Below are positions 2,012-58,135 of a stretch of 64,000 nt of DNA, piece after piece. The translations under genes were made by a program, and so were the position numbers. The stretch's first letter is position 1. Each line of letters begins with the position of its first letter. Origin of the DNA: Octopus vulgaris (lineage: Eukaryota); the NCBI GenBank assembly GCA_951406725.2, contig OX597814.1, positions 137,578,001 to 137,642,000 on the forward strand. Reading direction: 5' to 3'. The notes under the pieces are model-generated. The model had not been told where the DNA came from, did not search any database, and saw only the letters and a program-made list of their open reading frames with translations.

Positions 2012-2062
<51 letters not shown>

Positions 2063-2128
2063 GGTCCCGGGTTGATTCGGGGTTAACCACAGTAAATAAG
2101 GTACTCAATACCTAGCAGAGTAAAATTA

Positions 2129-2340
2129 ATTTATTATATAGAAGGAGCTTCTACAGGACTAGAACTGTTTCATTCAAGAGAAATCTTCAGGAAGCTAGTT
2201 AACAAGAATTGTATTGGCATTTATACATTTAGGCAGGTTTAAAGGGGTGTTGGTGGGGGACTTTTTGGGGGTAGGCATAGCGCAAAATATCATACTTGGG
2301 GGAGTGGTCAAGGAGTCAGTGTTAAATTAGATAGAAGAAT

Positions 2341-2416
<76 letters not shown>

Positions 2417-3302
2417 AAAAAAAGGGGGATAGAGTTTTAGGTAAATAAGGAGATTCTCACTTATACCTATGCACATATGTATACATATATACACACGCAT
2501 ACAAACATATACATATACATACACACATACATACACACACATATATATATATACATATATATACACTTACACATACATATACATATCTACACATACACAT
2601 ATATATGTATACATACACACACTCACATGCATACACGTATACACACATGTATATATACACACACACGACCACACATACATATACACACAGAAAAATATAT
2701 ATACACATACACACACATACTCACATACACGCATACACACACAAATCCACACACACACATGCACACCCAGCACACTAGTCCCTATATACACATACACACA
2801 TATATATATATATATACATACACACACATACATATACATACACACACATATATATATACATCTATATATATATATATATATATACATACACATGTGTACC
2901 CATGCATATCTACACATACACACATATATATGTACACATACAAATACAGACCCATTCCCTAATTTTAATTTTATTATCTTCGTTTATTACTTTTGTTATC
3001 TTTGGCCGCTTGGTCACAAACATCTTGGCTATGACAGCCAGTCCATTTATCTGTCTACTGGAAAACAAGCACTCATTCACTCACGCACACTCTTTAGCAC
3101 GTACACTCACTCATTCGTACACTCATACACATACACGCACGCACGCGTTATATTCATACATACATACATCTACGTACATTCACGTATATACACATACGTA
3201 CGCGTACCTACAGATTCATGTCTACACTCTTAGAAGGCTAGTCTATACATATACACCAATAAATATAAATACACACACATACACGTACACCTACATACAA
3301 AT

Positions 3303-3377
<75 letters not shown>

Positions 3378-3604
3378 CATATTCACATATATACACATAT
3401 ATACATACACACACATATACATACACATATACACACACACATATACACATATATACACACATACACATACATACATGTACACACATACACATACATACGT
3501 ATACATACATACATACATCCATACATCCATACATACATACATTTATACACATACACACACCCACATACATACATATATATACGCGCATATATATATATCC
3601 ATAT

Positions 3605-3637
<33 letters not shown>

Positions 3638-4049
3638 CATACATACATATATATTCATACACACACATACACATACATACATACATATACAAATATACGC
3701 ACACACATACATACATACTCATATACTCATACACACACATACACATGTACATGCGTCCCCTTACACGCACACACACACGCGCGCGTCCATATATACACAT
3801 AAGTACACCCATGCGTAAGAGTATACATATATCTATGCTTACACATACACACACACACACGCGCCTCCTTATATTCATACTTACATGCATACTCAAAAAA
3901 TAAGTAAATAGTAAAATATATATACGCGCAGTTATTCATACATGCATACTCAAAAAATAAATAATAAATAAAAAATATTAAGTATATGTACGTGCAATTA
4001 CCTATTATATAGACGGATACATACATATAAACTTACACACATAGATATA

Positions 4050-4085
<36 letters not shown>

Positions 4086-4153
4086 ATATATATATAAAAA
4101 CATATATATACATACACACATACACATATATATACACATACACACATACATAC

Positions 4154-4230
<77 letters not shown>

Positions 4231-4540
4231 CTTACACATGTACATATAAATACACACATAGATAACTCTACGTACCTACATATACATAAACACACGAGCG
4301 TACGCGTATATGTACATATACACATACACATACACACGCATATATATACATACATACATACACATACACACATGTGTATACACATACACACACATACACA
4401 TATATATACATACACATATATATACACATATATATATATATATATATATAATACATATATACATACATATATATATATACACACACTTACACACATATAT
4501 ACATACACATGTACATACATACATACGTATATGCATACAT

Positions 4541-4585
<45 letters not shown>

Positions 4586-4674
4586 CATACATACATACAC
4601 AAACACATACCCATACATATATATACACACACATATATATACACATGCACATACTTATATCTCTACATACTCGC

Positions 4675-4711
<37 letters not shown>

Positions 4712-5028
4712 TATATACATACATATATACATACATATACACACACACATACATATACCTATATACATGCATATATACACATACATATATATACACATCT
4801 ACAATTTGTATCTACACTCACATACCTGCACATACACATAACTCTACATACCTACAAATACATCGACATACTCGCGTACACTCATATATATACACATATA
4901 TACATATACACACACACATACATATACATATACATATATATAAACATATACACACATAATACACATATACACACACACATACATATATGTATATATATAT
5001 ATATACATATATACATACATACACACAC

Positions 5029-5083
<55 letters not shown>

Positions 5084-5484
5084 CATACATATATATATAT
5101 ATATACATACATACATACATACACATATACATACATGTACATATACACATACACACACATATATATATACATACACATACATATATCAACAATTGAGGGT
5201 AAGGTTAATTAGTTATTAATCAATTTCACCAAGTATTCAGTTGTAAAAGGACCATTATTTTTATGAGTAAACAATGTCTGAGGGAAAATATTCTCTAAGT
5301 AGTGGAAGAGGCTAAAAAACTTTATTGGCTGCTATTTCTAGAAAGTTCAGTATGCGGCAGAGTAATTTATTTTACTAAGCCCTAATTATATAATATTTTA
5401 TACATACATACACATACATACACACATACATATACACATACATATGCATACACACATATATACATATATACATACATACATCTA

Positions 5485-5566
<82 letters not shown>

Positions 5567-5687
5567 TATATATTTTTTTACATACATACACGCACACACA
5601 CACATAATATATAATACATGCGTATAATCCTACTATACCCATACATTTCTATACATATATACGATACACATATACAAGCGTGCACAT
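2129..5687 (-). repeat. Left arm of a ~7.5-kb palindrome (sense 3' region / pseudo-LTR of a Penelope-like element)
   Basis: Reverse complement of 5982-9590, including the unique islands at ~2130-2480, ~2945-3250 and ~5190-5400; lies downstream of the GIY-YIG C-terminus on the - strand. Confidence 0.9.
2146..2196 (-). ncRNA. Type I hammerhead ribozyme
   Basis: - strand reads agcttc CTGAAGA tttctcttgaat GAAA cagttctagtcctg TA gaagct; core boxes, 6-bp stem I, stems II and III and the GUA site are all present. Confidence 0.85.
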
Positions 5688-5981
5688 ACAATATGTGAAA
5701 GGTCTTAGGAGAAAAGGTAATCGGGGGTGCTAGGGGAACGGTGGGGTTGGGGGGGTTTGTGGGTGGGGTGTCATCAATCTGGTTGCCGGGTAGGTCTATA
5801 GTTCTTGTAGTTCGCATACTTTTTATGCATACAATTTGGGGAGTGTTCTGAGATTTTGTTAAGGAGAGGGCCTTTGGCGAACAAGATCTCTAGGCTCTCC
5901 GATATGCAGAGGTCACAGCAGGTATGGCCTCCTGTGTACGAGCGCGCCTTCTGTAGTAGTTTCCACTTGGTCTTGAAGGGG
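5688..5981 (-). mobile_element. Palindrome spacer: C-terminal end of a Penelope-like GIY-YIG endonuclease ORF
   Basis: ORF 5774-5989 gives KWKLLQKARSYTGGHTCCDLCISESLEILFAKGPLLNKISE..CMHKK, matching the W-x-I/L...CxLC..EK..I...LN.RSE...C.H motif seen at 56700-56984, 50690-50880 and 59091-59306. Confidence 0.85.
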
Positions 5982-6104
5982 ATGTGCACGCCTGTATATG
6001 TGTATCGTATATATGTATAGAAATGTATGGGTATAGTAGGATTATACGCATGTATTATATATTATGTGTGTGTGTGTGCGTGTATGTATGTAAAAAAAAA
6101 TATA

Positions 6105-6142
<38 letters not shown>

Positions 6143-6571
6143 CGTGTGTGTGTGTGTGTGTGTGTGTATATGTATAGATGTATGTATGTATATATGTATG
6201 TGTGTATGCATATGTATGTGTATATGTATGTGTGTATGTATGTGTATGTATGTATAAAATATTATATAATTAGGGCTTAGTAAAATAAATTACTCTGCCG
6301 CATACTGAACTTTCTAGAAATAGCAGCCAATAAAGTTTTTTAGCCTCTTCCACTACTTAGAGAATATTTTCCCTCAGACATTGTTTACTCATAAAAATAA
6401 TGGTCCTTTTACAACTGAATACTTGGTGAAATTGATTAATAACTAATTAACCTTACCCTCAATTGTTGATATATGTATGTGTATGTATATATATATGTGT
6501 GTGTATGTGTATATGTACATGTATGTATATGTGTATGTATGTATGTATGTATATATATATATATATGTATG

Positions 6572-6630
<59 letters not shown>

Positions 6631-6939
6631 GTGTGTGTATGTATGTATATATGTATATATATATATACATATATGTATGTGTGTGTGTATATGTGTATTA
6701 TGTGTGTATATGTTTATATATATGTATATGTATATGTATATGTATGTGTGTGTGTATATGTATATATGTGTATATATATGAGTGTACGCGAGTATGTCGA
6801 TGTATTTGTAGGTATGTAGAGTTATGTGTATGTGCAGGTATGTGAGTGTAGATACAAATTGTATATGTGTATATATATGTATGTGTATATATGCATGTAT
6901 ATAGGTATATGTATGTGTGTGTGTATATGTATGTATATA

Positions 6940-6993
<54 letters not shown>

Positions 6994-7082
6994 GCGAGTA
7001 TGTAGAGATATAAGTATGTGCATGTGTATATATATGTGTGTGTATATATATGTATGGGTATGTGTTTGTGTATGTATGTATG

Positions 7083-7127
<45 letters not shown>

Positions 7128-7523
7128 ATGTATGCATATACGTATGTATGTATGTACATGTGTATGTATATATGTGTGTAAGTGTGTGTATATATGTAAA
7201 TGTAAGTGTGTGTGCTTGTATGAGAATGTATGTATGTTTGCACACATGTATATATGTGTGTGTATGTGTATGTGTATATATATATATGTATGTATATATG
7301 TATGTATATATATATATATATATATGTGTATATATATGTGTATGTATATATATGTGTATGTGTGTGTATGTGTATACACATGTGTGTATGTGTATGTATG
7401 TATGTATATATATGCGTGTGTATGTGTATGTGTATATGTACATATACGCGTACGCTCGTGTGTTTATGTATATGTAGGTACGTAGAGTTATCTATGTGTG
7501 TATTTATATGTACATGTGTAAGT

Positions 7524-7557
<34 letters not shown>

Positions 7558-7558
7558 A

Positions 7559-7589
<31 letters not shown>

Positions 7590-7639
7590 GTATGTATGTG
7601 TGTATGTGTATATATATGTGTATGTGTGTATGTATATAT

Positions 7640-7673
<34 letters not shown>

Positions 7674-8080
7674 CTATGTGTGTAAGTTTATATGTATGTA
7701 TCCGTCTATATAATAGGTAATTGCACGTACATATACTTAATATTTTTTATTTATTATTTATTTTTTGAGTATGCATGTATGAATAACTGCGCGTATATAT
7801 ATTTTACTATTTACTTATTTTTTGAGTATGCATGTAAGTATGAATATAAGGAGGCGCGTGTGTGTGTGTGTATGTGTAAGCATAGATATATGTATACTCT
7901 TACGCATGGGTGTACTTATGTGTATATATGGACGAGCGCGTGTGTGTGTGCGTGTAAGGGGACGCATGTACATGTGTATGTGTGTGTATGAGTATATGAG
8001 TATGTATGTATGTGTGTGCGTATATTTGTATATGTATGTATGTATGTGTATGTGTGTGTATGAATATATATGTATATATG

Positions 8081-8113
<33 letters not shown>

Positions 8114-8346
8114 ATATGGATATATATATGCGCGTATATATATGTATGTATGTGGGTGTGTGTATGTGTATAAATGTATGTATGTATGGATGTATGGATG
8201 TATGTATGTATGTATACGTATGTATGTGTATGTGTGTACATGTATGTATGTGTATGTGTGTATATATGTGTATATGTGTGTATATGTGTATATATGTGTA
8301 TGTATATGTGTGTGTATGTATATATGTGTATATATGTGTGAATATG

Positions 8347-8404
<58 letters not shown>

Positions 8405-8825
8405 TGTATGTATTTGTATGTAGGTGTACGTGTATGTGTGTGTATTTATATTTATTGGTGTATATGTATAGACTAGCCTTCTAAGAGTGTAGACATGAAT
8501 CTGTAGGTACGCGTACGTATGTGTATATACGTGAATGTATGTAGATGTATGTATGTATGAATATAACGCGTGCGTGCGTGTATGTGTATGAGTGTACGAA
8601 TGAGTGAGTGTACGTGCTAAAGAGTGTGCGTGAGTGAATGAGTGCTTGTTTTCCAGTAGACAGATAAATGGACTGGCTGTCATAGCCAAGATGTTTGTGA
8701 CCAAGCGGCCAAAGATAACAAAAGTAATAAACGAAGATAATAAAATTAAAATTAGGGAATGGGTCTGTATTTGTATGTGTATATATATATGTGTGTATGT
8801 GTAGATATGCATGGGTACACATGTG

Positions 8826-8874
<49 letters not shown>

Positions 8875-9344
8875 GTGTGTGTATGTATATGTATGTGTGT
8901 GTATGTATATATATATATATGTGTGTATGTGTATATATGTGTATATAGGGACTAGTGTGCTGGGTGTGCATGTGTGTGTGTGGATTTGTGTGTGTATGCG
9001 TGTATGTGAGTATGTGTGTGTATGTGTATATATATTTTTCTGTGTGTATATGTATGTGTGGTCGTGTGTGTGTATATATACATGTGTGTATACGTGTATG
9101 CATGTGAGTGTGTGTATGTATACATATATATGTGTATGTGTAGATATGTATATGTATGTGTAAGTGTATATATATGTATATATATATATGTGTGTGTATG
9201 TATGTGTGTATGTATATGTATATGTTTGTATGCGTGTGTATATATGTATACATATGTGCATAGGTATAAGTGAGAATCTCCTTATTTACCTAAAACTCTA
9301 TCCCCCTTTTTTTTTATATATATATATATATATATATTTTATTT

Positions 9345-9378
<34 letters not shown>

Positions 9379-9584
9379 ATTCTTCTATCTAATTTAACAC
9401 TGACTCCTTGACCACTCCCCCAAGCATGATATTTTGCGCTATGCCTACCCCCAAAAAGTCCCCCACCAACACCCCTTTAAACCTGCCTAAATGTATAAAT
9501 GCCAATACAATTCTTGTTAACTAGCTTCCTGAAGATTTCTCTTGAATGAAACAGTTCTAGTCCTGTAGAAGCTCCTTCTATATA

Positions 9585-9590
<6 letters not shown>
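5982..9590 (+). repeat. Right arm of the ~7.5-kb palindrome (inverted pseudo-LTR copy)
   Basis: Reverse complement of 2129-5687; ends directly in (TA)n. Confidence 0.9.
9523..9573 (+). ncRNA. Type I hammerhead ribozyme
   Basis: agcttc CTGAAGA(9529-9535) tttctcttgaat GAAA(9548-9551) cagttctagtcctg TA gaagct; predicted cleavage after GTA at 9567. Confidence 0.85.
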
Positions 9591-9632
<42 letters not shown>

Positions 9633-9754
9633 ATATATATATGCATACATATATACATACATATATATATGTGCATACATATATACACATACATATATAC
9701 ACATACATACATATATACATATAGATACATATATACACATATATATATATATAC

Positions 9755-9802
<48 letters not shown>

Positions 9803-10172
9803 TAAATAAAACATATGCATATATACATACATATATGTACGAACCTACCTCTACATGTATATATACATGCATATATGGGTACAGGACACCAAAAAACCGT
9901 CGAACACAATGAGAAACGAAAACATAAACACAAAACCAAGGAACTGGACATTTTTCTTAAACAACGAAAAGATAGAATACAGGATAAATAACACAAGGAA
10001 AATTCCCCTTCAGTCACCATGGTTTCATCTACTCTGCATTTCGAAGGTGAAGGCGATACGCATCTTCGATAGAAACTTTCCTTCCCGCGAAAAGCAAATT
10101 AAGTAAAATTTGAGATCTTTTTGCGGAGGGGTAAAAATGGTAACAAAAACAGGACAGTAACGACAGTACAAA

Positions 10173-10230
<58 letters not shown>

Positions 10231-11809: not shown

Positions 11810-13450
11810 GGTATTACAGATCAGAAATATCTAATTTATGGTCTAATTCATTCCAGGTTCAACTGGTTCAACTCATTGATAATAAACTCAAATTTATCCA
11901 GTTTGATATCTGCAGTTATTATTCCTCTATTAATCCCATCATCCTTAATAAGGCCCTATGGTTCTCACATAATAAATCTGGCCTCACCTGTGATGAATTT
12001 CATGTTATTTTAACAGCTAGAAAATCTATTATCAAATTTGATAATATATTTTGGGCTCGTAAAGATTGACCTGACTGCTTTGATATATTTATGGGGTCTA
12101 GTGATTCAGCCCAATTTTCTGATTTGGTTGGTATTTATATTCTATCAGAATCACAAGGATTGCCTCCTTTACCTTCAAAATATCTCTAATCAACAATTAC
12201 AAAATGTTAAATATAATCTAGTTAAATTCTTTAGCAATATGGGCCAAAATATTACATTTGATGATGATAGAACAAAGGTTAATTTCCTTGACCTTACACT
12301 CAACTTAGATACAACTTTATATTTCCCATACCATAAACCTTCAATCAATCTAAAATATATCAGCATTTTTAGCAATCATCCTACTAATATAACAAAAAAA
12401 TTTGGTTAAAAACATGTCACTTAGAATCTCTAAATTATCCGCCAATATTAATGTTTTCAATAATAATGCTGATTTCTATAAGCTGTCCTTATATAAGGTA
12501 GGATATAGGGAGCAAATTAAGTATTATAACCCTCTTGATCCCAATTCAACCTCTAATAATCTGGTTAATAGTAGTTATACTAATAATAACAATAATAATA
12601 ATACTCATAATGTTTCTCCCATAGGTAATAATCCAGATAATAACCCCTTATATCAAAATAGCCAAAGACCTAATTTTGGAAAATTTAAGAATAAAGTATA
12701 AGGGCAGTAATTATACTTCCCCACTCTTTCTGTGAAAATGGAAAAAACTCCCTATAAATCGCATGACCCTTGTAAAACTATTTGGTTTATTATTCCATAT
12801 GGAAAACAAGTTAAAAGTAACATTCCTTACCTATTTCTTCAAACCATCAAAAGGAACTGTCCCCAAAATTCCAAGTACTACTCCATTCTTAACACACATC
12901 GTATCCAAATTGATTACTCCAACACCAATAACCTCCTACAAATTATATCCTTGCATAACTACTATATTCTTAACGGTAAAAGCTTAATAAATGTAATAAC
13001 AATAATAATAATAATAATAATAATAATGATAATCTCTCCTTAAATAATAGTATTAATAATAATAGTCCTTGTAATTGTGATCCAAACAAAATTTGCAGAA
13101 TTAAAAATGTTGTTTATCAATGTAAAATTTATGCAGGAATATTTTTATGCTGGCATTTCATTCGCAGAATTAAAGAAACAAGTTGCTAACCATCTTTTTA
13201 CATTTAAATATATTCATAAACGTAATACTACAGATCTTAGTAAACTAATTTGGCATCTCAAAGACTGTAATAAATAATTTTCTTTGGATTGGAAAATTTT
13301 GCCAAGATTGTTTCCCTATGATAAAGGGAAATCTTTCTGCTCTCTTTGTATGTACAAACAAATATTTTCCCTTTTTCCAAACACACACTAGTCAACACCT
13401 ATAAAGAACATGTTTACATTGGAAAAAACACTCTTTCAGCTTTTTCAAAT
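11810..13450 (+). mobile_element. Degenerate Penelope-like retroelement (RT C-terminus, thumb, GIY-YIG)
   Basis: Frameshifted ORFs give NFLDLTLNL..YFPYHKP..SNHP, LRISKLS, IWFIIPY..FLQTIK, YAGISF..NHLFTF..TDLSKLIWHLKD and downstream WKIL..YDKGKSFCSLC. Confidence 0.85.
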
Positions 13451-16420: not shown

Positions 16421-16524
16421 AGTACCAACCAAGTACTGGGGTCAATGTAATTGCCTTTCCTACTTCCTTCAAAATTATTGGCCTTGTGCCAAAATTAGAT
16501 TATTATAGTGAGACAGCAAAATTG

Positions 16525-16722
16525 TTACCATGCTGGACACAGGGATTAGTGGCATTTCTTCTAGTTTTATGTTCAGAGTTCAAATTTCACCAGAGTTGAC
16601 TTTGCATTTCATCCTTTTGTGGTTGATAAAATAAGTACCAGTCAAATACTGAGGTTGATATAATTAATTCAGCTCTTCCCATCCTAAAATTTCAGGTCTT
16701 GTGCCTATAGTAGAAAGAATCA
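16525..16722 (+). mobile_element. tRNA-derived SINE, family A (diverged)
   Basis: gagttcaaatt..gttgactttgcatttcatcc..aagtaccagtc..tttcaggtcttgtgcctatagtagaaag. Confidence 0.7.
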
Positions 16723-17238: not shown

Positions 17239-17344
17239 GCTCTCTAAACAGCCACTGAAAATAAAAGTAACTTGCAAGTATACTTTAAACACAACTATCT
17301 TCTAGTCTTTCTTTCACAAAGTTGCTACCATCAAAGTTGAAAGA

Positions 17345-18817
17345 ATGATATTCAAGATTTTGTATTTCCTTTTAATTATCATATTAGTTGTGAAGAGTGA
17401 AAATATAACAATCAATAATGCTATGAAAAATATTCTATTGGATTATAATAACTCCACTTCAACTGAAAACTTTTCTCCGTGGTTTTTTAAACAAATGGTA
17501 GATATCCTAAACTGTGATTCTTTACCAAAATTAAACAACAGTCAAATGCAGTTTGTTTTGAAATCGAATGAAGAAAAGATATATCTGGAACAAATATGCA
17601 ATCGATATTTTGAAGCAAGCCAAAAGAATACGACTGATATTGTTTGTCTGAATGGTAAATGGAGATATGAAGATAAAAAATGTAAGTTAATAACCTGCCC
17701 AACTTTTCATAAGCCTGCTCACTGTAACATGACAAAAGTTTCATACACATATAAATCTGTTATTTACTTTTCCTGCTTTCCTGGATACTTTTTGCAAGGA
17801 AACCGTTCAATACGCTGTGAAGAAACGAAACAGTGGTCATCTCCACCACCAGTTTGTAAACGTGTTACATGTATCCCACCTCATACACCAAAACATGCTA
17901 ATGTGTCCACTACAAAAGAAGTTGAAGTTAACAAAACAATTCATTTCAGTTGTTTGGAACCATATTCATTGAAAGGTAAATCAGTATTAACTTGTCTTGA
18001 AGATGGTGATTGGAACTTTCCAGCACCCGTTTGCACTTGGAAATGTTTAGTGCCCAAAATAGTTGGTAGAGTGACAACTCTCTTACAAAATAAAGTTTTA
18101 AAACCAAAAACATTAATTCGTAGTGGAAAAAAAGTGTTATATTCTTGTAAACAGCCTTTCCTTCCAGTAGCATTCGGAGTCATTCAATGTTTGTCAGGTA
18201 GATGGCATCCAGATATTCAGTGTAAAAAGACATGTAACATTGAGAGAGTAAAGAAATTAAACTATACTTTATCACATAATTTTACAGTGATTGAATATCA
18301 TTGTCCAGCAGGAGAAACATTATTAGGGGACTCTAAAAGAACCTGTTTAGAAAACGGAACCTGGAGTGGTAAACTTCCAGTTTGTGTAAAAAAATGTCAA
18401 CTGTTACCTAACTTAGGCATTTATAGCTACCGAGATTCAGACAACTTACAATACCTTCCATTTGGAAGCTCGGTTCCAGAAAACACTAATATAACATACT
18501 TATGTCAGCAAAATTACACAAAGAAAACGGAGAATGTGAGCTGCTCAAATGGTGTATTGACTCCAGTACCACATTGCTCAGATGAAAGATTTTATGTAGA
18601 AAGCAAACGACTTCGATTCAAATATCAATCAACTCATTATTATGTTTGTGAAAATAATTATTCTTGCAATTTTTTTGGTTACCGTAATTACGGGAAATGT
18701 GATCTAACTTCATGTTATAACAGTAACTGTGTTAGTTTCAGTGTTAACAAAGTATCAAAGCTGTATATGAAGAGATACGATGGAAGTTGTTGCATTATTA
18801 GGTGTCATGAGAACTAA
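17345..18817 (+). CDS. Secreted multi-sushi (CCP/SCR) domain glycoprotein, 490 aa, uninterrupted CDS
   Basis: Hydrophobic signal peptide (MIFKILYFLLIIILVVKS); about six C...C...C..W....C modules (e.g. FSCFPGYFLQGNRSIRCEETKQWSSPPPVC, YHCPAGETLLGDSKRTCLENGTWSGKLPVC); many N-x-S/T sequons; Cys-rich C-terminal module; no TM segment; AATAAA at 18942. Confidence 0.92.
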   Translation: MIFKILYFLLIIILVVKSENITINNAMKNILLDYNNSTSTENFSPWFFKQMVDILNCDSLPKLNNSQMQFVLKSNEEKIYLEQICNRYFEASQKNTTDIVCLNGKWRYEDKKCKLITCPTFHKPAHCNMTKVSYTYKSVIYFSCFPGYFLQGNRSIRCEETKQWSSPPPVCKRVTCIPPHTPKHANVSTTKEVEVNKTIHFSCLEPYSLKGKSVLTCLEDGDWNFPAPVCTWKCLVPKIVGRVTTLLQNKVLKPKTLIRSGKKVLYSCKQPFLPVAFGVIQCLSGRWHPDIQCKKTCNIERVKKLNYTLSHNFTVIEYHCPAGETLLGDSKRTCLENGTWSGKLPVCVKKCQLLPNLGIYSYRDSDNLQYLPFGSSVPENTNITYLCQQNYTKKTENVSCSNGVLTPVPHCSDERFYVESKRLRFKYQSTHYYVCENNYSCNFFGYRNYGKCDLTSCYNSNCVSFSVNKVSKLYMKRYDGSCCIIRCHEN

Positions 18818-21027: not shown

Positions 21028-22034
21028 ATGCCAATTTAAAGAATGCCACAGTACTGAAATATGCAGACGACATCAAGCTGTAACTTGAAATCAAGAGGGC
21101 AGATCCTGATGTCTACGACTCTTTCCTGCAATCAGACCTGGACACAATGCAGCAATGGTTCACAGACTGGCAACTGAAACTGGCTGTGGACAAGTGTACC
21201 ACCATGCATTTTGGGAGAAAAAACTCTGCGTCCACATACTCCCTCCACAACACTGATATCAAGAAATCCTCTTGCGAGCGTGACCTAGGCATCACTGTCA
21301 GCAGTGATTTGCGTTGGACAAAGCATATCTCTAAAATTGTCAAGAAGGCCAAAGGTGTCTTGGCATCACTCAGCAAGACTTTTGTTAGCCGCTCTCCAGC
21401 CATCTATTTAAAGCTGTGTACAGCTATGGTACGACCACACTTGGAATTCGCATCATCAGTTTGGAACCCCTATCTTGCTCAGAACATTGACCTCCTGGAA
21501 TCTGTTCAGAGACGTGCAACCAAACGCATACCCTCCATTAGACACCTACCATACTCTGAGCACCTTGTTTCCCTGGGCATGGATTCACTGAAGCTCCGGC
21601 GTCTGGCGATGGACTTGGTAAACACCCACAAAGTTATCAACCACCACACCAACAACAACACTGAACACCTTTTTGATCTTCATGTGTCCAACACACGTGG
21701 ACATGCCTACAAAGTCAGAAAACAGCACAGCTCCCATGACTTTCGGAAACATTTTTTCACGCTCAGAGTTGCTGAAGCATGGAACAAACTGCCTGCGTCA
21801 GTTGTTGACTGCCATGACACTGCATCCTTTAAGGCCCTCATGCTTTCCGAAATCCGCCAAAACTACACCTGATTGTCCCCCTTCCATACTCATACACATA
21901 TGTGTATGTCATGACTCATGCACTGTTCTTTTCCTGACACTTGTACATTACCCTATGTACTATACATACACTTTAGATGAGTTGTAGTGCACCTGAGCAC
22001 TGTACACAATGTTTTATTATATTATTATTATTAT
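21028..22034 (+). mobile_element. 5'-truncated CR1/L2-group LINE copy (same family as 30587-35337)
   Basis: ORF 21147-21872 is nearly identical to the C-terminal 241 aa of the ORF at 30668-33433; starts near the YADD codons; (TTA)n-type tail. Confidence 0.95.
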
Positions 22035-22549
22035 AAAACTGAATTATTATTATAAAACTGAATTAGTATTAAATTTTAATATTATCGATTTATATATTTA
22101 GTCATGAAATGTGCGTAGTCAAGTTAATGTTTGATTTGTTATGAGATTTTTAGAATAATAATTATAAGATATTTAATTAATTTCTATGTGGTTATTATAG
22201 ATAATGTCTTTTCACTATTGATAGAATTGCTAAATAGTGGTTTGTCTCTAAATTATACACACACACACACACATATATATATATATTTATATGTATATAG
22301 TATATATTTGTATATATAATATATATGTGTATATAATATATGTATATATATATATAATATATATATATATATAATCAATAATAAAAGGGTAGAATTAATT
22401 AATTATTAATTAATAATTTTACCAAGTAGTGTTCAGTATGTAAAAAGACCATTTACTGTATATTTAAAACATTACGTTATATAATTAGGGTTCAGTTAAA
22501 AAATTTACTTTACCACACACCGAACTTTTAGAAATAGCAGCCAAAAAAT

Positions 22550-22659
22550 TTAGCTATTTCTTCTACTATAAGAAAAGTCTCCCAGACAATGTATACTCAA
22601 AACTATTTTTGAGTATACATTGTCTGGGAAACTTTTCTTTTAGTAGAGGAAATAGCTAA
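22550..22659. repeat. ~53-bp-arm imperfect hairpin
   Basis: ttagctatttc..cccagacaatgtatactcaaaa / ttttgagtatacattgtctggg..gaaatagctaa, about 3 mismatches. Confidence 0.85.
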
Positions 22660-29923: not shown

Positions 29924-30348
29924 AGCCGCTGTCCAGAGACGTGCAACCAAACGCATACCCTCCATCAGACACCTACCATATTCTGAGCGCCTTGTTTCCC
30001 TGGGCATGGATTCACTGAAGCTCCGGCGTTTGGCGAGGGACTTGGTAAACACCCACAAAGTTATCAACCACCTCACCAACAACAACACTGAACACCTTTT
30101 TGATCTCCATGTGTCTAACACACGTGGACATGCCTACAAAGTCAGAAAACAATACAGCTCCCATGACTTTCGGAAACATTTTTTCACGCTCAGAGTTGCT
30201 GAAGCATGGAATAAACTGCCTGCGTCAGTTGTTGACTGCCATGACACTGCATCTTTTAAGGCCCTCATGCTTTCCGAAATCCGCCGAAACTACACCTGAT
30301 TATATATACACTTTAGATGAGTTGTAGTGCACCTGAGCACTGTACACA

Positions 30349-30387
<39 letters not shown>

Positions 30388-30667: not shown

Positions 30668-33433
30668 TCAGGTGTAGTTTCGGCGGATTTCGGAAAGCAT
30701 GAGGGCCTTAAAAGATGCAGTGTCATGGCAGTCAACAACTGACGCAGGCAGTTTATTCCATGCTTCAGCAACTCTGAGCGTGAAAAAATGTTTCCGAAAG
30801 TCATGAGAGCTGTATTGTTTTCTGACTGTGTAGGCATGTCCACGTGTGTTAGACACATGGAGATCAAAAAGGTGTTCAGTGTTGTTGTTGGTGAGGTGGT
30901 TGATAACTTTGTGGGTGTTTACCAAGTCCGTCGCCAAACGCCGGAGCTTCAGTGAATCCATGCCCAGGGAAACAAGGCGCTCAGAATATGGTAGGTGTCT
31001 GATGGAGGGTATGCGTTTGGTTGCACGTCTCTGAACAGATTCCAGGAGGTCAATGTTCTGTGCAAGATAGGGGTTCCAAACTGATGATGCGAATTCCAAG
31101 TGTGGTCGTACCATAGCTGTATACAGTTTTAAATAGATGGCTGGAGAGCGGCTAACAAAAGACCTGCTGAGTGATGCCAAGACACCCTCGGCCTTCCTGA
31201 CAATCTTAGAGATATGCTTTGACCAACGCAAATCACTGCTGACAGTGATGCCTAGGTCACGCTCGCAAGAGGATTTCTTGATATCAGTGTTGTGGAGGGA
31301 GTAAGTGAACGCAGGGTTTTTTCTCCCAAAATGCATGGTGGTACACTTGTCCACAGCCAGTTTCAGTTGCCAGTCTGTGATCCATTGCTGCATTGTGTCT
31401 AGGTCTGATTGCAGGAAAGAGTTGTAGACATCAGGATCTGTCCTCTTGATTTCAAGGTACAGCTTGATGTCGTCTGCATATTTCAATACTGTGGCATTCT
31501 TTAAATTGGCATCTATGTCGTTAATGTATGCCACAAACAAGAGGGGACCAAGGACAGATCCCTGTGGTACACCCGATGACATCTCATATGGTGTAGAGTG
31601 CTGCCCTAGAACTGTGACTACCTCCTTTCGGCTGAGGATGAAGGATTTCAACCAGTTAAAAAGGTCATCCCCCACACCCATTGCAGAGAGTTTCACCATA
31701 AGCCTTTTGTGTGGCACAGAGTTGAAAGCCTTAGCAAAGTCAAGGTAGACAACATCCACCCATGAGCCACTGTCAGTAATCTGAGTAATGTCCTCAAGGA
31801 ACTCGACAAGCTGGTCACTGCAGCTGGAGTTAGGGACAAATCCATATTGTGAGGGTCGGATGAGACTGTGAGAGCTCCAGAAGTTCCAGAGTGTTTCTCT
31901 GACACACGATTCCATCAGTTTTGCAATACAGCTAGTGAGACTGACTGGGCGATAGTTGACAGGTGATGTGCGGTTGCCCTTTTTGAACAGAGGAATGACA
32001 CTGGCAGTTTTCCACTGCTCCGGAGTAGCACCATTGTTGAGACAGTACTGGAAGAAAATAGAAAGCTGGTGTAAAAGGAAGTGCCTGCCACGTTTGAGAA
32101 GCAGGTATGTAACTCCATCGAGACCAGGGGAGGCATAGTTGCGCTTATTTTGAAGGTGACGTCGCAGCATTGCAGGTGTAAATTCCATAGTTGTTATGGA
32201 GTTTGCTGTTAGTGATGGTGAAGATGGTGCATTTTGACTTTCAACAGTGAATATGTTTGCATAGCACTCGGCAATGAGTTCTGCGCATTCCTTGGGGTCG
32301 TCAGTGATCTGGTTTGTGTGAGGGTTGCGAAGAGGGCCCACTGGAGAGTGAGGTTTCTGCTTTGAGTGCACATATTTCCAGAAAACCTTGCTGTCAGGAT
32401 TGGCTGCTATGCACTGTTCAAATTCAAGCACTGCTTTTTTTGTCACTTGCTTGAGATGGTTGGAGGATTTATTCCGCTTCTTCCTGTTGGTGTCTGATTT
32501 ATGCAACCTGTATTCCCGTTCAGCAGTCCGACGTTCCCTCCTGGCAAGTCGGACCGCTGAAGTTTCCCAAATTGCCCTTTTGGGGCGGTTCTTCTTTTTT
32601 TGTTTACGTGGCACTGATGCTGCACATGCTGCCCATATTGAGTCCAGGATACTCTGGAGTATAGTATTCACATCTCCAGAGTTGTAGAATTCACGCCAGT
32701 TTGGGTGCTGTAGTTCAGTGTGGTACAGGTTCCAATCTGCTCTCTTCCAATCGAAGGAAGCAGATTGGAGATGGTTCAGGTTTTTGTTGCCTGCAAGAGC
32801 CAGATTGGCGATGATCATAGCATGATCAGAGTCACCTAGAGGTTCCTCCGTAGTGCAATTGATAACCGCTTCAGGAGTTGTGGTGAAGAGCAGGTCCAAG
32901 GTGTTGTCGCCTCTTGTTGGAGAGGTGACTACTTGTGACCAGTTTGAGTCCAGCACAAGCTCAACAAAATCGTTTGCACTCTGTGGCCAATGGAAGGTCT
33001 CCCAATCGATCTCAGGATGATTGAAATCGCCTGCAATAAACACATAAGTGGCTGTTTTCCTGGCAGCAACTCGGAGGACATTGCAAAGCTGTGTGTCCCG
33101 ATGGTAACTTGGGGGACGATAAACAACGCCAAGCAGGAGTGTTGACATGGTCATACGCACGTCACAGAAAAAAACTTCTTCTTGTGATTCGTTCAAATCG
33201 GCACAAGGAATTACCAAAAAATTTGAACGAACATAGACCATCACACCACCACCACGGCGGTTAGTGCGGTCCTTACGGAAGAGGTTGTACCCCGTAATGT
33301 TGAAAACCCCATCACAGAGTAAGGAATGCGCCCATGTTTCCGTGACAGTGATGAAGTCAGGGTCAACACTTCTGACGTAGGCGTTGAACAAATGTATTTT
33401 GTTGCATAAACTGCGAGCATTTAAGGACAACAA
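30668..33433 (-). CDS. LINE ORF2: APE endonuclease plus reverse transcriptase, 921 aa, intact, no initiating ATG
   Basis: LNARSL, VTETW, AGDFNHP, LDLLF, SDH (APE); NYRPVSL, YLDFAKAFNSV, GVPQGSVLGPLLF, YADD (RT); CR1-type tail FFTLRVAEAWNKLP. Confidence 0.95.
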   Translation of the reverse strand: MLSLNARSLCNKIHLFNAYVRSVDPDFITVTETWAHSLLCDGVFNITGYNLFRKDRTNRRGGGVMVYVRSNFLVIPCADLNESQEEVFFCDVRMTMSTLLLGVVYRPPSYHRDTQLCNVLRVAARKTATYVFIAGDFNHPEIDWETFHWPQSANDFVELVLDSNWSQVVTSPTRGDNTLDLLFTTTPEAVINCTTEEPLGDSDHAMIIANLALAGNKNLNHLQSASFDWKRADWNLYHTELQHPNWREFYNSGDVNTILQSILDSIWAACAASVPRKQKKKNRPKRAIWETSAVRLARRERRTAEREYRLHKSDTNRKKRNKSSNHLKQVTKKAVLEFEQCIAANPDSKVFWKYVHSKQKPHSPVGPLRNPHTNQITDDPKECAELIAECYANIFTVESQNAPSSPSLTANSITTMEFTPAMLRRHLQNKRNYASPGLDGVTYLLLKRGRHFLLHQLSIFFQYCLNNGATPEQWKTASVIPLFKKGNRTSPVNYRPVSLTSCIAKLMESCVRETLWNFWSSHSLIRPSQYGFVPNSSCSDQLVEFLEDITQITDSGSWVDVVYLDFAKAFNSVPHKRLMVKLSAMGVGDDLFNWLKSFILSRKEVVTVLGQHSTPYEMSSGVPQGSVLGPLLFVAYINDIDANLKNATVLKYADDIKLYLEIKRTDPDVYNSFLQSDLDTMQQWITDWQLKLAVDKCTTMHFGRKNPAFTYSLHNTDIKKSSCERDLGITVSSDLRWSKHISKIVRKAEGVLASLSRSFVSRSPAIYLKLYTAMVRPHLEFASSVWNPYLAQNIDLLESVQRRATKRIPSIRHLPYSERLVSLGMDSLKLRRLATDLVNTHKVINHLTNNNTEHLFDLHVSNTRGHAYTVRKQYSSHDFRKHFFTLRVAEAWNKLPASVVDCHDTASFKALMLSEIRRNYT

Positions 33434-33489
33434 TTTGTACCCTGCTCGCAGTTTATGATGGTGTGTAGAGGATGGCAGGTTGTTCTGGC

Positions 33490-34269
33490 TTAGTTTCCCT
33501 GAGTTGCTGTAGTCTTTTTAGTTATTGTGGGTAGAGAGCACTCAGACCAGCTGGTATCTCTCTTCCACGTTTCAGCAGTCTTGACAAATCTCCAGATTTG
33601 TCCATCTTCCCGAAGACTGAAGCTTTCCTGTAGAGCTGAGTTCCTATTCAGGGAAGCCACTACACGTAGCTTCGGACGGTAAGCCTGGGCGTGTTCGGAA
33701 GGTGGTCCGATTTTCCCGCCCAGCTTTAACTGAGGCCAGATGGTAAGAGGTTACCTCAGTGGGGTCCGTAAAAGACAACTTGATGAGCCTAGGTTTTGGG
33801 CCAGGTCGTCCAAGGCGGATAGCACCCGTTGGGGGAACGCAGCCTAGGTCTTTGGCTGAGTTGGCAGCAAAAGCCTGAAGATCAGCCATGTCTTCTGGTA
33901 CCCCAATGGCAATGACTTCATGGGTGGCAGAATCCGCGGTCTTAAATGCGACAAGAGGTACAGGTACAGGGAGGTTCTTTAGCAGAGCATTCCGATAAGA
34001 CCCCTCATTGTGGAGTCCAACCTGAATGGTTGCTTTTATTCCTGCTACTTCCCCTTTTAAAGCACAGATCGATTGTTGCAGTTCTGCAAGAACCGCACTG
34101 GTCAATTGGTGTTGTTGTTGTTGCTGCTGTTGCTCTGGTTGTGGTTGATTTTGTTGTTGCTGTTGTTGTTGTTGATGTTGTTGTTGCTGCTGCTCTGGTT
34201 GTGGTTGATTTTGTTGTTGCTGCTGCTCTGGTTGTGGTTGATTTTGTTGTTGCTGCTGCTGCTGCTCTA

Positions 34270-34302
<33 letters not shown>

Positions 34303-34695
34303 CTGGTTGTGGTTGATTTTGTTGTTGCTGCTGTTGCTGTTCCGCCTCCTCCACGGGAGTGGCAGGGGGAGACACAATCGTCGGTTGTGGAGGCACGCAG
34401 GCCTGACACTGAAAAGTCTAAGATTTAAGCTGAACCATCTTCCAGAGTCTATCCATCATAGCATTATGATGGCTCTTTTTTGGCCTGGGATCTTCTGAAA
34501 GTCCGTGGCACATTGGAGGCAGACAGAGATGAGACATGTCCCACATTCGACCCAGCGATTACGGAACGTATTTTCGGGTTCCGTACAGATGTGGCAGGTG
34601 TGATTTTCTGGGCAGTGTTCTATTTTAGAGCAGCGACCAGTCTTATCGCACGCCGCTATGGATTTCACCATGGCGATTCTGTTGGTTCTGGTCAT
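33490..34695 (-). pseudogene. LINE ORF1, disrupted: PHD-like finger, poly-Q linker, coiled coil, C-terminal domain
   Basis: CHIC..WVECGTC...CLQC in one frame; KS*TFQCQAC, the poly-Q region and RLG..KPRLIKLSF in a second frame; an open tail ending QGN* at 33490 in the third frame; requires two frameshifts and one stop. Confidence 0.75.
34108..34340 (-). repeat. Coding tandem repeat (Q)n-NQPQPE within ORF1
   Basis: Repeated ctctggttgtggttgattttgttgttgctg units. Confidence 0.9.
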
Positions 34696-35337: not shown

Positions 35338-36277
35338 ATATGTAACCTAGACCATAGGTTCTCAGTCTCTGGCCACAATTGATACTTTACTGGCAGGGCT
35401 TTGGCCATGCGTGAGCAACTTCAACAATTCCTTACCAAATTTCCGATATCCCAGTCCATAGTCAGCCAATAGACAGCTCCTCATCAAAACTTTCATCTCC
35501 TACATTCTCAGGTGCCTGCTGTGGAATTGTTGCAATATACATTTTTGTAAAGTAGTCGGTACTACCACTCTTTGTGCATACATCAAAATATCGTCACATA
35601 TTGAGAAACTACATGAATTTGTATTTTTATTTTTTAAAAAGCTTCTTTCATTTTTGTAATATTCTAATCACCTACAGATTTCATTCTTACATCCTGTGCA
35701 GTCACTGGCAGTTCTTGGATAACATTAGTCATAATACATTTTATTTCATTTTCTGTCTGCAGTGCAGCTAACATGGTATCTTCTAGTAGTTCCATGTTTT
35801 TGTAAATTATCCTTGATAGACAGCCACATGAGCAATTTTTTTGATGAAATCTACTGCATTTTGAAATTGTAATTTAATAGTATTATACCCCAATGTTAGA
35901 ATATTTCTTATTTCTTCAAACGCATTTTGGCATTTAACTGACCAATTCCACTTTACTTCCTTTTTTAATAAGTCATTCAATAGCACTCTTAATTTGTGCA
36001 TGTTCAGAATGTAGTTTTGGTAGTAGTTTGCCAGCCCAAGAAACGCTTGTAATGTTGGTATATTTGTCAGAGCAGGTATATTCTTTATTACATCTGCCCT
36101 TGACGGATCAGGCTGTCTACCATTTTTATCAACTACTTGTCCTAAGTACTTAATTTGAGGCAAAGAGAATTCAAATTTTTCTTCACTCAAAGTGAATTCA
36201 TACTCTTTAATTTTCTTGAACACAGCTTTTATATGCTCTACATACTGTTCATGTGAATTACTCTTAATCAATATATC
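35338..36277 (-). mobile_element. Ty3/Gypsy pol remnant (RT end to integrase N-terminus), 5' continuation of 29100-29923
   Basis: IKYLGQVVDKNGRQPDP..LQAFLGLANYY..LLKKEVKWNW; WPETENLWSRLH at the LINE junction. Confidence 0.9.
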
Positions 36278-36513
36278 CTTTTCTACTCTAGGTACAAGGC
36301 CCAAAATTTTTGGGGGAGGGGGGGCAGTCAATTAGATCAACCCCAGTATGGAACAGGTACTTAATTTATCGACCCCCAAAAGGATGAAAGGCAAAGTCGA
36401 CCTTGGCGGAATTTGAACCCAGAACATAATGGCAGACGAAATACGGCTACGCATTTCACCCGGCGTGCTAACATGTCTGCCAGCTCACAACCTTCGTTTC
36501 TGCCAGCTCACCG
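36278..36513 (-). mobile_element. tRNA-derived SINE, family A
   Basis: ggatgaaaggcaaagtcgaccttggcggaatttgaac..ctgccagctc. Confidence 0.85.
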
Positions 36514-37504: not shown

Positions 37505-37729
37505 TTTCTTTACTACCCACAAGGGGCTAAACACAGAGGGAACAAACAAGGACAAACAGATTAAGTCGATTACATCGACCCCAGTGTGCAACTGGTACTT
37601 ATTTTATCGACCCCAAAAGGATGAAAGGCAAAGTCGACCTTGGCGGAATTTGAACTCAGAACGTAACGGCAGACGAAATACGGCTACGCATTTCGCCCAA
37701 CGTGCTAACGATTCTGCCAGCTCGCCGCC
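37505..37729 (-). mobile_element. tRNA-derived SINE, family A (different 3' end)
   Basis: Same head and core as 36278; head ..ttctgccagctcgccgcc. Confidence 0.85.
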
Positions 37730-38189
37730 CTAACACACATGTACACCTATGTATGCATATATACACAATATTAAATAAGTGATAGGGAACAGAATTTACA
37801 TAATGAGCTTCATTAGCTTACAGCAGTTTCTGTTGTAAGCTACTCAGAGGTGAGTACTTGTCCATCACTGGGAGCTCCAAGGAAGCTATAAGGTGATGTG
37901 TATGGATGAGGACAGCTGTGTAAAGTGCTGATTGTTGTAAATGAATGGAATTTATAGAAGAAAGAAATCCAGGAAGACATTGTATGAAAGAGTGAAAGTT
38001 GATCACAAGCTGTTGCACCTTGTGAAGATGACAAAGGGCCAAGATGATCAGCAATTTGCTGTGCTTGAGAAGATCTGCCTGTCATAGAAAAAAAAAACCG
38101 ACGTCCTAAGAGCATTTTGTTTATCTCCACACATGCTGAGCCTTGCCCTCAGTACCCAGTCTTAATGTTTATCCCCCTATCACTTTTCT

Positions 38190-54592: not shown

Positions 54593-54625
<33 letters not shown>

Positions 54626-54781
54626 CCGGAGTAAACACATAGATGTGAAACAAGGTGGAAAAAAGAGTACTCAAATACCAGTGGTAGAGTAATATGCTTT
54701 ATTTTAAGCGGCAGAAAATTCAACAAAATCTGTTACTCTAAGTTTCTCGTTGCTGTTCATCAGACAGTTTTTGCTAGAATG
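54626..54781 (-). mobile_element. Solo 3'-terminal fragment of the PLE at 55337-58093, with hammerhead at 54730-54767
   Basis: ~155 bp nearly identical to 55337-55492; abuts (TA)n. Confidence 0.85.
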
Positions 54782-55304: not shown

Positions 55305-55338
<34 letters not shown>

Positions 55339-55407
55339 GGAGTAAACACATAAATGTGAAACAAGGTGGAAAAAAGAGTACTCAAATACCAGTGGTAGAG
55401 TAATATG

Positions 55408-56701
55408 CTTTATTTTAAGCAGCAGAAAATTCAACAAAATCTGTTACTCTGAGTTTCTCGTTGCCGTTCATCAGACAGTTTTTGCTAGAATGGAACTGAT
55501 ATATCAATTCAATCTATACTCTTACAAACGCTACACCTTTAAAAAGAAATGGACTTGTTTGATTGGCCCTTTAGAAAAAACGGTCAATCTTCGAGCGATA
55601 AACAAAAAGGTCAAAAATATATGTATATATATATAAAAAAACTTATAAAAATTATAAAATCCGAGGAAAAAAACCTATTGACGTTAATGAAGACAGTGCA
55701 AATTAATGCATAGAAATTAAACCTGTTATAAATACTGCAATACATATTTATATTAAAATCTACATATATATATCAACATACACAAAAGGATGCCAGAAAC
55801 GCCATACATACATATACAGACGTATGAATATAAATCTAAATATACACATAAAAGCATGTGTACATATATTCACGCAAACCGTCTCGCACGCAAGCTAAAA
55901 TTCATCTATGTAGCAATTCTCATATACTGAGCAAGGAGGGCGAACGAAAGAAAGGGAGAGAGAGAAAAAGGAACGAAGGAGGGGTGGGGAAAAAACGAAA
56001 TATTATGTATACAAGCAGTGTAACTGTATTATTGGCATATATAAAGACCAGTATACATACACAAGTTTGAATGGATACACATACATACAGTCGTGTATAT
56101 GTGTGCTTAAGCACAAACATACTTTCACTTACACATACACAGATACGCATGCTTACAAATACATATGCTTTGCTATACACATACTTATATAAATATTCTA
56201 ATTTTGACAACATTGCTTTTTTTAAAAAAACATTGCTTTTAAAAATGGGTGCATTAATAAAAATATATACGAAAGACATATAAAATAAAATAAAATATAA
56301 CATCCTATTTTGGGTCATTTATAAATAATCAAGGTAATTCTATGCAATACAATAACATGAAAACAAAGTTTGTAGGTTTTTCCTAATATATATGTAGAAA
56401 CATAAGACTTTGCTATACGGATTAAGATCCGCATTCCTTGGAAACAAAATCCATCGTAGCGCTCATCGTTCAAGAGTCAAAATCAAAATCAAAAATACAA
56501 AATATATACTCTATCCATATGGTATATATATATTCGACATTTTAAATTTAGCCGCGTGCCTACATAAGTTCATTAGCTCACTTCTTTGATTCAAAGAATT
56601 ATTGTCTTTGAATAAGATGTACATTTTTTCTAATAGACAAAGTCTGCACTTGAAATTATTTTTGTAAGCTCCATGCCTGTATGGTGCCGCCCTGTCCAGA
56701 A
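55408..56701 (-). repeat. Left (inverted) arm of a ~2.7-kb PLE palindrome
   Basis: Reverse complement of 56794-58093. Confidence 0.95.
55441..55478 (-). ncRNA. Minimal type I hammerhead ribozyme
   Basis: - strand ctgt CTGATGA acggcaacga GAAA ctcagag TA acag. Confidence 0.75.
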
Positions 56702-56984
56702 ATACCCAGAGAATAGGAAGAAAACCAGCCTAGCAAAATATGTCTGGGAACTAAAAGAAAAGGAAGCCCCACCTTTCAACGTGACATGGAGCATTCTGGA
56801 CAGGGCGGCACCATACAGGCATGGAGCTTACAAAAATAATTTCAAGTGCAGACTTTGTCTATTAGAAAAAATGTACATCTTATTCAAAGACAATAATTCT
56901 TTGAATCAAAGAAGTGAGCTAATGAACTTATGTAGGCACGCGGCTAAATTTAAAATGTCGAATATAAATATACCATATGGATAG
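56702..56984 (+). mobile_element. C-terminal end of a Penelope-like GIY-YIG endonuclease ORF (92-bp spacer plus the start of the right arm)
   Basis: KTSLAKYVWELKE..VTWSILDRAAPY..KCRLCLLEKMYIL..LNQRSELMNLCRH. Confidence 0.9.

Positions 56985-58092: not shown

Positions 58093-58093
<1 letters not shown>
56794..58093 (+). repeat. Right (sense) arm of the ~2.7-kb PLE palindrome
   Basis: Reverse complement of 55408-56701; ends in (TA)n. Confidence 0.95.
58023..58060 (+). ncRNA. Minimal type I hammerhead ribozyme
   Basis: ctgt CTGATGA(58027-58033) a-cg-gcaa-cg-a GAAA ctcagag TA acag; predicted cleavage after GTA at 58056. Confidence 0.75.

Positions 58094-58135
<42 letters not shown>

Follow-up and report, generated by a model that had tools for sequence, protein, structure and literature searches.

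A kilobase-scale palindrome in the Octopus vulgaris genome reads as a truncated, head-to-head copy of a young Hydra-clade Penelope-like element

How does a retrotransposon copy come to carry two kilobase-long, nearly identical arms in opposite orientation, and does the resulting palindrome call for a function? This question is raised by a 64,000-nt stretch of the Octopus vulgaris genome (assembly GCA_951406725.2, contig OX597814.1, positions 137,578,001 to 137,642,000, forward strand; hereafter the window), in which positions 2129-5687 and 5982-9590 are reverse complementary around a 294-bp spacer. Our analysis indicates, with a confidence of roughly 85%, that the unit at 2060-9590 is a 5'-truncated, non-coding, young copy of a Hydra-clade Penelope-like element (PLE) in a (TA)n target, in which two copies of the element's 3' end stand head to head, likely as the outcome of one insertion event. 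It is one of many dead copies, ordinary for its class, and no special function is needed to account for it.

The palindrome had been proposed in a sequence-only reading of the window, and both self-comparison of the window (93% over 3,687 columns) and global alignment of arm to arm (3,454 matches, 28 substitutions, and 20 gaps that together take up 204 columns) agree with it. The gaps are mainly microsatellite length changes, plus one 86-bp stretch that is absent from the left arm and is ancestral, being found in 30 of 33 arms. Non-repetitive islands differ between the two arms of the locus at 3 of 1,129 positions, and alternating purine/pyrimidine repeat makes up 65.5% of the arm versus 5.3% of window positions 10001-64000. 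The left arm (minus strand) is the sense 3' untranslated region (UTR) and pseudo-long terminal repeat (pseudo-LTR) with its unique islands, while the right arm (plus strand) is a second, inverted pseudo-LTR copy, 5'-truncated and without a tail. One arm island (5261-5393 and 6262-6394) shows a 76% match to 22477-22602, beside a 110-bp hairpin at 22550-22659, possibly a sign that a further small repeat was taken up by the pseudo-LTR.

The spacer, previously read as encoding only the end of a GIY-YIG endonuclease, does contain on the minus strand the last 68 codons (5980-5777) of an open reading frame (ORF) for a reverse transcriptase (RT) with a GIY-YIG domain, identified by translation and family protein alignment and bearing the CxxC, E, N, and CxH motifs; it is not coding throughout, since two stop codons (5771-5776) follow and the rest, about 85-90 bp, is 3' UTR, starting directly after the stops (5688-5770). 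The 68-codon peptide corresponds to residues 655-722 of the family's full 722-aa protein. The inversion junction lies at 5982-5984, where ORF and inverted arm share a 3-nt microhomology, and a search of the genome returned no second occurrence of this junction sequence.

Beyond the left arm, the insertion extends a further 69 nt, so that 2060-9590 is the whole unit. This "tail" (2060-2128, minus strand) is the true 3' end of the insertion and is present at this end only; when positions 2066-2340 were used as query, all 30 loci with this end stopped at the same point (2060) and then ran into (TA)n. The earlier placement of the unit between (TA)n runs holds on both sides (2024-2059 and 9591-9620), with the correction that the left run begins only past the tail, which had been missed. 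Both outer ends coincide with the family's two fixed end sites, and a tandem copy (L097/L098) has the order hammerhead-tail-ORF, its tail continuing into the ORF 5' region. With flanks made of (TA)n, a target-site duplication (TSD) is not readable at the locus.

These observations bear directly on whether the structure might be a fold-back assembly artefact, or a later palindromic DNA duplication unrelated to retrotransposition. Long palindromes and microsatellites do trouble assemblers, as stated for PLEs in PMC8557442, and the locus is known from the assembly alone. Contigs from four sequencing runs, examined over 5690-6060, included none bridging the junction among the best 20 of 922, a neutral result given that a young insertion may be absent from other individuals. 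The divergence of the arms, including the ancestral 86-bp stretch kept only on the right, the coincidence of both outer ends with fixed family sites, and the recurrence of the layout and of a one-tail rule at 51 loci in two families (below) all speak against it. We regard this explanation as very improbable, the least probable of those considered here.

To place the unit in a family, the genome was searched with the spacer (at least 510 candidates) and with the hammerhead end (at least 1,009 candidates), and 40 copies were scored for each query; these were 98-100% identical, the spacer set being the best 40. In sibling copies the ORF extends to varying 5' points, and one of them (L114) retains an uninterrupted 722-aa frame with both RT and GIY-YIG domains. 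Singleton divergence in the family ORF is 0.25%, which indicates that the family is young. The predicted structure of the 722-aa protein (pLDDT, the per-residue confidence score, 93) returned telomerases in the top seven Foldseek rows, and residues 593-698 of this predicted model aligned with the I-TevI GIY-YIG domain (1ln0_A; Z 9.4, root-mean-square deviation 2.5, 89 of 92 residues), with Atlas features at 0.95-0.96 to GIY-YIG clusters. Pfam searches matched no family with the spacer peptide and neither a GIY-YIG nor an RT family with the family proteins, apart from a sub-threshold RVT_1 in one homolog, and nothing meaningful matched in sequence searches of the PDB. The sequence-only reading had staked its spacer assignment on GIY-YIG profiles; no Pfam profile matched, whereas the full protein aligns structurally, and because Pfam is blind to this family's GIY-YIG domain, the missing profile match would have misled as a refutation.

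The protein motifs place the family in the Hydra clade of C-terminal endonuclease-bearing (EN+) PLEs. That clade is defined by RWK, DKT (not DKG), a CxCX5C linker, CxxC and CxH around E and N, and the lack of an internal CCHH (PMC8557442). The family protein carries RWR at 47 and DKT at 125, the sister family introduced below has RWK (a conservative K/R difference), and C576-x-C578-x5-C584, C676xxC679, E682, N695, and C704xH706 are kept in 99-100% of 110 aligned sequences; an internal CCHH is absent. AT repeats flank every one of 30 tail ends, and 29 of the 30 ends without a tail. With an ORF of about 2.15 kb and a median pseudo-LTR of 3,533 bp, the unit measures about 5.8 kb and departs from the "generally short (<3 kb)" Hydra length, which is a general and not a defining trait of the clade (PMC8557442). 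As for EN+ PLEs at large, the telomerase-related RT in a single ORF is present in siblings and has been lost from the locus copy, while a C-terminal GIY-YIG, a pseudo-LTR from partial tandem or inverted copies, a one-end tail, and a type I hammerhead are all found. A non-LTR retrozyme, which consists of short non-coding tandem units with a hammerhead in each (10.64898/2026.07.22.740005), was considered and rejected, the locus being a single inverted pair with an ORF remnant and no tandem array. An octopus repeat annotation describes 31 recently active Penelope-like families, in the part of it used here without clade or hammerhead detail (PMC13282606), and its library may contain this family.

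The layout recurs across the genome. From the 40 spacer matches, removal of the locus itself and of two pairs within the same insertion left 37 sibling loci, taken at 20 kb each; being the best matches to the whole spacer, they are biased towards young copies that retain the ORF end. Downstream of the ORF, these loci repeat the unique islands of the arm with their order unchanged, and the median distance between the stop codon and the end of the hammerhead is 3,533 bp (range 2,079-10,199, n=38). An inverted 5' arm ending in a hammerhead was found at 27 of the 37, so that the arm-spacer-arm arrangement, which a genome search with spacer and hammerhead end had been suggested to reveal, is present in most siblings. 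These inverted arms span 188-4,927 bp (median about 1,025), and the arm of our locus is among the longest without being unique. Family siblings and layout alike therefore sustain the initial identification of a 5'-truncated PLE with an inverted pseudo-LTR, whereas the view of its roughly 3.6-kb, simple-repeat arms as unusual has to be given up, as they are the standard pseudo-LTR of the family. Among the papers listed in literature searches, none described such a microsatellite-rich Penelope pseudo-LTR or a cephalopod Penelope palindrome.

Two side observations concern the same loci. Some sense arms of the family look like mosaics of two haplotypes. Mini-palindromes of about 200 bp that consist only of tail and hammerhead set head to head against a second hammerhead occur at L065:4692-4898, L149:3900-4085, and L159:8782-8976; two of the three are nested in the family's own pseudo-LTR, and they are candidate non-autonomous derivatives.

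A second palindrome in the window, at 55320-58098, provides a second family for comparison. Its 1.3-kb arms are 98.5% identical and carry hammerheads at their outer ends (55474 on the minus strand and 58027 on the plus strand), the tail is on the left only, and an endonuclease remnant occupies 56637-56981. This palindrome comes from a sister family in the Hydra clade (42% identity, pseudo-LTR about 1.1 kb), for which 40 loci were chosen for long open frames from about 100 candidate rows; 24 of these 40 have an inverted arm. The sister family is also rich in nearly identical copies whose frames stay open over about 727 codons, and is a good source for in vitro work; some of these copies form fully palindromic pairs of entire elements (L140 and L142). 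A short tail-plus-hammerhead fragment lies beside its palindrome in the window, at 54609-54781.

Examination of the hammerheads addressed the proposal that the palindrome acts through its RNA. A complete type I core with stems I-III and a GUA triplet was identified by core scan and folding at 2146-2196 (minus strand, in the sense pseudo-LTR, predicted cleavage after 2152) and at 9523-9573 (plus strand, in the inverted arm, where cleavage is predicted after 9567, 23 nt short of the outer arm end). Stem I ends 17 nt inside both arms, as had been reported, and the motif is intact as far as sequence goes, with an identical 51-mer in 60 of 66 arms; its U.U closing pair is the one seen in the Hydra hammerheads of File S2 (PMC8557442). 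Rfam returned no hammerhead family and one chance long non-coding RNA match for 9420-9590, and 233 matches for the whole window, the 150 listed all being microRNA models on microsatellites below the gathering score. Predicted folding in context favours a competing hairpin that covers the cleavage site (-12.2 versus -7.8 kcal/mol for the hammerhead, 4.4 apart), and the same order is predicted for the isolated core (-8.5 versus -7.3 kcal/mol).

The sequence-only reading had further suggested that read-through transcription would give a fold-back RNA of about 3.5 kb with a self-cleaved 3' end, serving as transposition template and as a functional substrate for ADAR editing or small-RNA processing. 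The geometry fits, in that nearly all of a read-through RNA would be double-stranded, its 3' end carrying a sense hammerhead, and incidental editing or dicing of such an RNA is plausible. Small RNAs are produced from Penelope copies of Adineta vaga (PMC3846280), and one of the 72 family hammerheads (L069) stops no more than 5 nt from the cleavage site. The remaining 71, and all 104 sister hammerheads (two regular-expression false alarms were settled by eye), continue past the cleavage site, which indicates that copies derive from RNA uncut at the hammerhead and that self-cleaved ends are not what is inserted; in vitro, moreover, insertion by Poseidon, a PLE of another clade, does not need hammerhead cleavage (PMC11167929). 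The unit, whose junction is found at a single place in the genome, has not been mobilised again, and the hammerhead would presumably be paired with its complement in the other arm as the read-through hairpin zips up.

Nor do the copies bear an ADAR imprint. On the sense strand, singleton A>G versus T>C changes numbered 13 versus 35 in the pseudo-LTR islands and 6 versus 18 in the ORF of the family, 1 versus 10 in the inverted arms alone, and 14 versus 18 in the sister ORF, so that neither family has a sense-strand A-to-G excess; this test covers edits inherited through retrotransposition, as distinct from transcripts of the locus. The opposite T>C excess in the family (loci L061-L134, p=0.009 and 0.0006) is left unexplained. 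Antisense ADAR editing and RT error were tried as causes and set aside, the sister family being non-significant (p=0.15) and no clear neighbour preference or clustering being seen. Taken together, a selected fold-back RNA serving as template and substrate appears quite improbable.

The distribution of the tail and of arm haplotypes is more informative on how the arms arose. Exactly one outer end carries the tail in 26 of 27 family and 24 of 24 sister inverted insertions (50/51; p=2e-14 versus independent ends at 50%), and among these the long arm bears it 27 times, the short arm 23 times. Twenty stretches of an older subfamily, most without both ends visible, were left out of this count; by eye, six of its seven readable loci follow the same rule. 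Non-inverted copies carry the tail in 5 of 10 cases in the family and 1 of 16 in the sister family. A tail on one side has been described in qualitative terms (PMC8557442, legend of Fig. 2; PMC3846280), and no count of it was found in the parts of these two papers, or of the other texts, that were examined. Both arms of one insertion share a haplotype: arm divergence is 0.53% in cis versus 1.23% in trans in the family (n=28, p=5e-6) and 0.09% versus 0.98% in the sister family (19 pieces), minor alleles are concordant between arms in 56 of 76 cases versus a mean of 9% in 151 shuffles, and in each family 11 locus-private variants occur in both arms.

A one-ended tail on either arm, combined with a shared haplotype, speaks for a single RNA that was copied two times, from separate start sites. 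Among mechanisms, we give somewhat better than even weight to reverse transcription of the same RNA twice, from opposite strands of the target. The GIY-YIG domain would nick each strand of the (TA)n target, which is its own complement; the two rounds of reverse transcription would begin at different places, the first at the end of the tail and the second at the no-tail site, 69 nt further upstream; both would copy the pseudo-LTR of one RNA and stop at random points; and the two truncated copies would be joined through microhomology. Palindrome and hammerheads would thus be by-products, with no selected function of a fold-back RNA. In line with such a scheme, the Poseidon protein in vitro cuts both strands of AT-rich DNA and begins reverse transcription at two positions, one on either side of the tail; it is also predicted to dimerise (PMC11167929).

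The principal competitor accepts the same element and derives the inverted arm from fold-back (self-priming) of the first complementary DNA or, as put forward in PMC3846280, of an antisense template, with the endonuclease trimming one tail while resolving the intermediate; we consider it a serious possibility of roughly one chance in three. Fold-back explains the identity in cis, the locus-private variants in both arms, the microhomology, and the one-ended tail; self-priming was proposed in PMC3846280 and endonuclease-mediated resolution for the tail in PMC8557442. Five of 39 sister full-length units (L163-L202, L140-L142) start exactly at the no-tail site, which fits fold-back with trimming. 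Plain fold-back, however, copies the short arm from the long one and cannot give a tail on the short arm only, as seen in 23 of 50 insertions, so that a symmetric trimming step has to be added to keep it viable, and the two in vitro start sites at the tail boundaries (PMC11167929) also weigh against it. Regarding other starts among the same 39 units, six cluster upstream of the cleavage site of the hammerhead, at a distance of about 100 nt, and mark a candidate transcription start, and one sister copy (L168) has its 5' start exactly at the cleavage site.

Copying one RNA twice has its own difficulties, which are gathered here. The dependence on the assembly noted above is one; another is that the similarity of arms in cis could equally arise by gene conversion between arms or by fold-back synthesis. 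One family insertion (L123) has tails at both ends together with discordant arms, one older-subfamily locus (L148) by eye has a tail at neither end, and 20 of the 76 shared alleles are discordant between arms. The lack of a tail in 15 of 16 non-inverted sister copies, versus 5 of 10 in the family, is unexplained by the model, and the sister units that begin at the no-tail site are also what endonuclease cleavage there would give. Junction microhomology is clear at our locus (3 nt), while a 38-locus tally was unreliable and left unused, four loci having no seed and several having stopped at private single-nucleotide polymorphisms.

If copying of one RNA from two start sites holds, a broader proposal can be put forward tentatively, at a little under even odds: Penelope inverted repeats would be made by an asymmetric RT/endonuclease dimer that copies one RNA twice, one subunit at each tail boundary, with the one-tail rule and same-haplotype arms as its genomic signature, and every new site would thereby receive 3.5-7 kb of microsatellite from the octopus family, which would seed perfect hairpins of several kilobases genome-wide. 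None of the papers listed in literature searches (in the broadest, the first 20 of 190) proposed twin priming for Penelope inverted copies; the older key literature lay outside this coverage, and priority is not established.

The window holds further features that are peripheral to this argument. At 17306-18814 (plus strand), an uninterrupted 503-aa frame has five Sushi stretches (Pfam PF00084, E 4e-30) and a hydrophobic N-terminus, and is possibly an intronless secreted gene of complement-control type or a retrocopy. An open 949-aa endonuclease-RT frame with an upstream ORF lies at 30671-34417 (minus strand), in an element that we take to be like a long interspersed nuclear element; its inverted 3' copies at 21028-21874 and 29929-30383 make further inverted repeats. 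Decayed fragments resembling the Hydra-type RT thumb region, from a third, older family, occupy 12014-13040 (plus strand), and a dispersed repeat of about 200 bp, presumably of short-interspersed-nuclear-element type, recurs at 1271-1491, 16508-16720, 36267-36494, and 37564-37732. A scan limited to RT and endonuclease motifs gave no long ORF in the 10 kb to the left of the window.

The formation of Penelope inverted repeats and tails is stated as an open question in PMC8557442. The two young octopus families offer countable rules (one tail per insertion, on either arm, from the same template) alongside intact ORFs, making the mechanism testable. A 3.5-kb microsatellite pseudo-LTR, easily missed in short-read assemblies, also presents the case of a retrotransposon that spreads simple repeats and long hairpin-forming DNA.

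Among known systems, the 5'-inversions of L1 arise by twin priming, in which two primers from opposite target strands are used and the products are joined by microhomology, as proposed here; L1 inversions cover non-overlapping parts of the RNA, whereas both octopus arms copy the same 3' region. The Penelope elements of A. vaga share head-to-head inverted pseudo-LTRs, an optional tail on one of them, and microhomology at 5' junctions, and differ in having pseudo-LTRs of about 200 bp, junction palindromes, and TSDs where the octopus has kilobase-long arms, a non-palindromic spacer, and no discernible TSD (PMC3846280). Poseidon PAc of Anolis likewise has an AT-rich tail between two fixed end sites downstream of the hammerhead and makes copies from RNA uncut at the hammerhead, although it belongs to another clade and its hammerhead overlaps the start codon, while the octopus ORF begins about 75 nt after the tail; inverted arms are not addressed for PAc in the sections of that paper examined (PMC11167929).

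The closest likeness is to the Hydra elements themselves (Penelope-13_HM, Hydra-1_Obim), which have a single RT plus GIY-YIG ORF, RW(K/R), DKT, CxCX5C, and CxxC/E/N/CxH, (TA)n targets, and a canonical hammerhead with the U.U variant; the entry for Penelope-13_HM includes an inverted, 5'-truncated copy with hammerheads on both strands, like our locus (PMC8557442). Against this background, the octopus unit of about 5.8 kb contrasts with 1.1-3.0 kb for the 27 Hydra families listed in File S1, its pseudo-LTR of about 3.5 kb, two-thirds of it microsatellite, is unlike those described, its tail of about 69 nt exceeds the described 30-40 nt, and its hammerhead sequence differs from that of Hydra-1_Obim, which marks it as a different family (PMC8557442). 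The head-to-head layout being already published for Hydra elements, the octopus family is, judged by its motifs, a further member of the Hydra clade.

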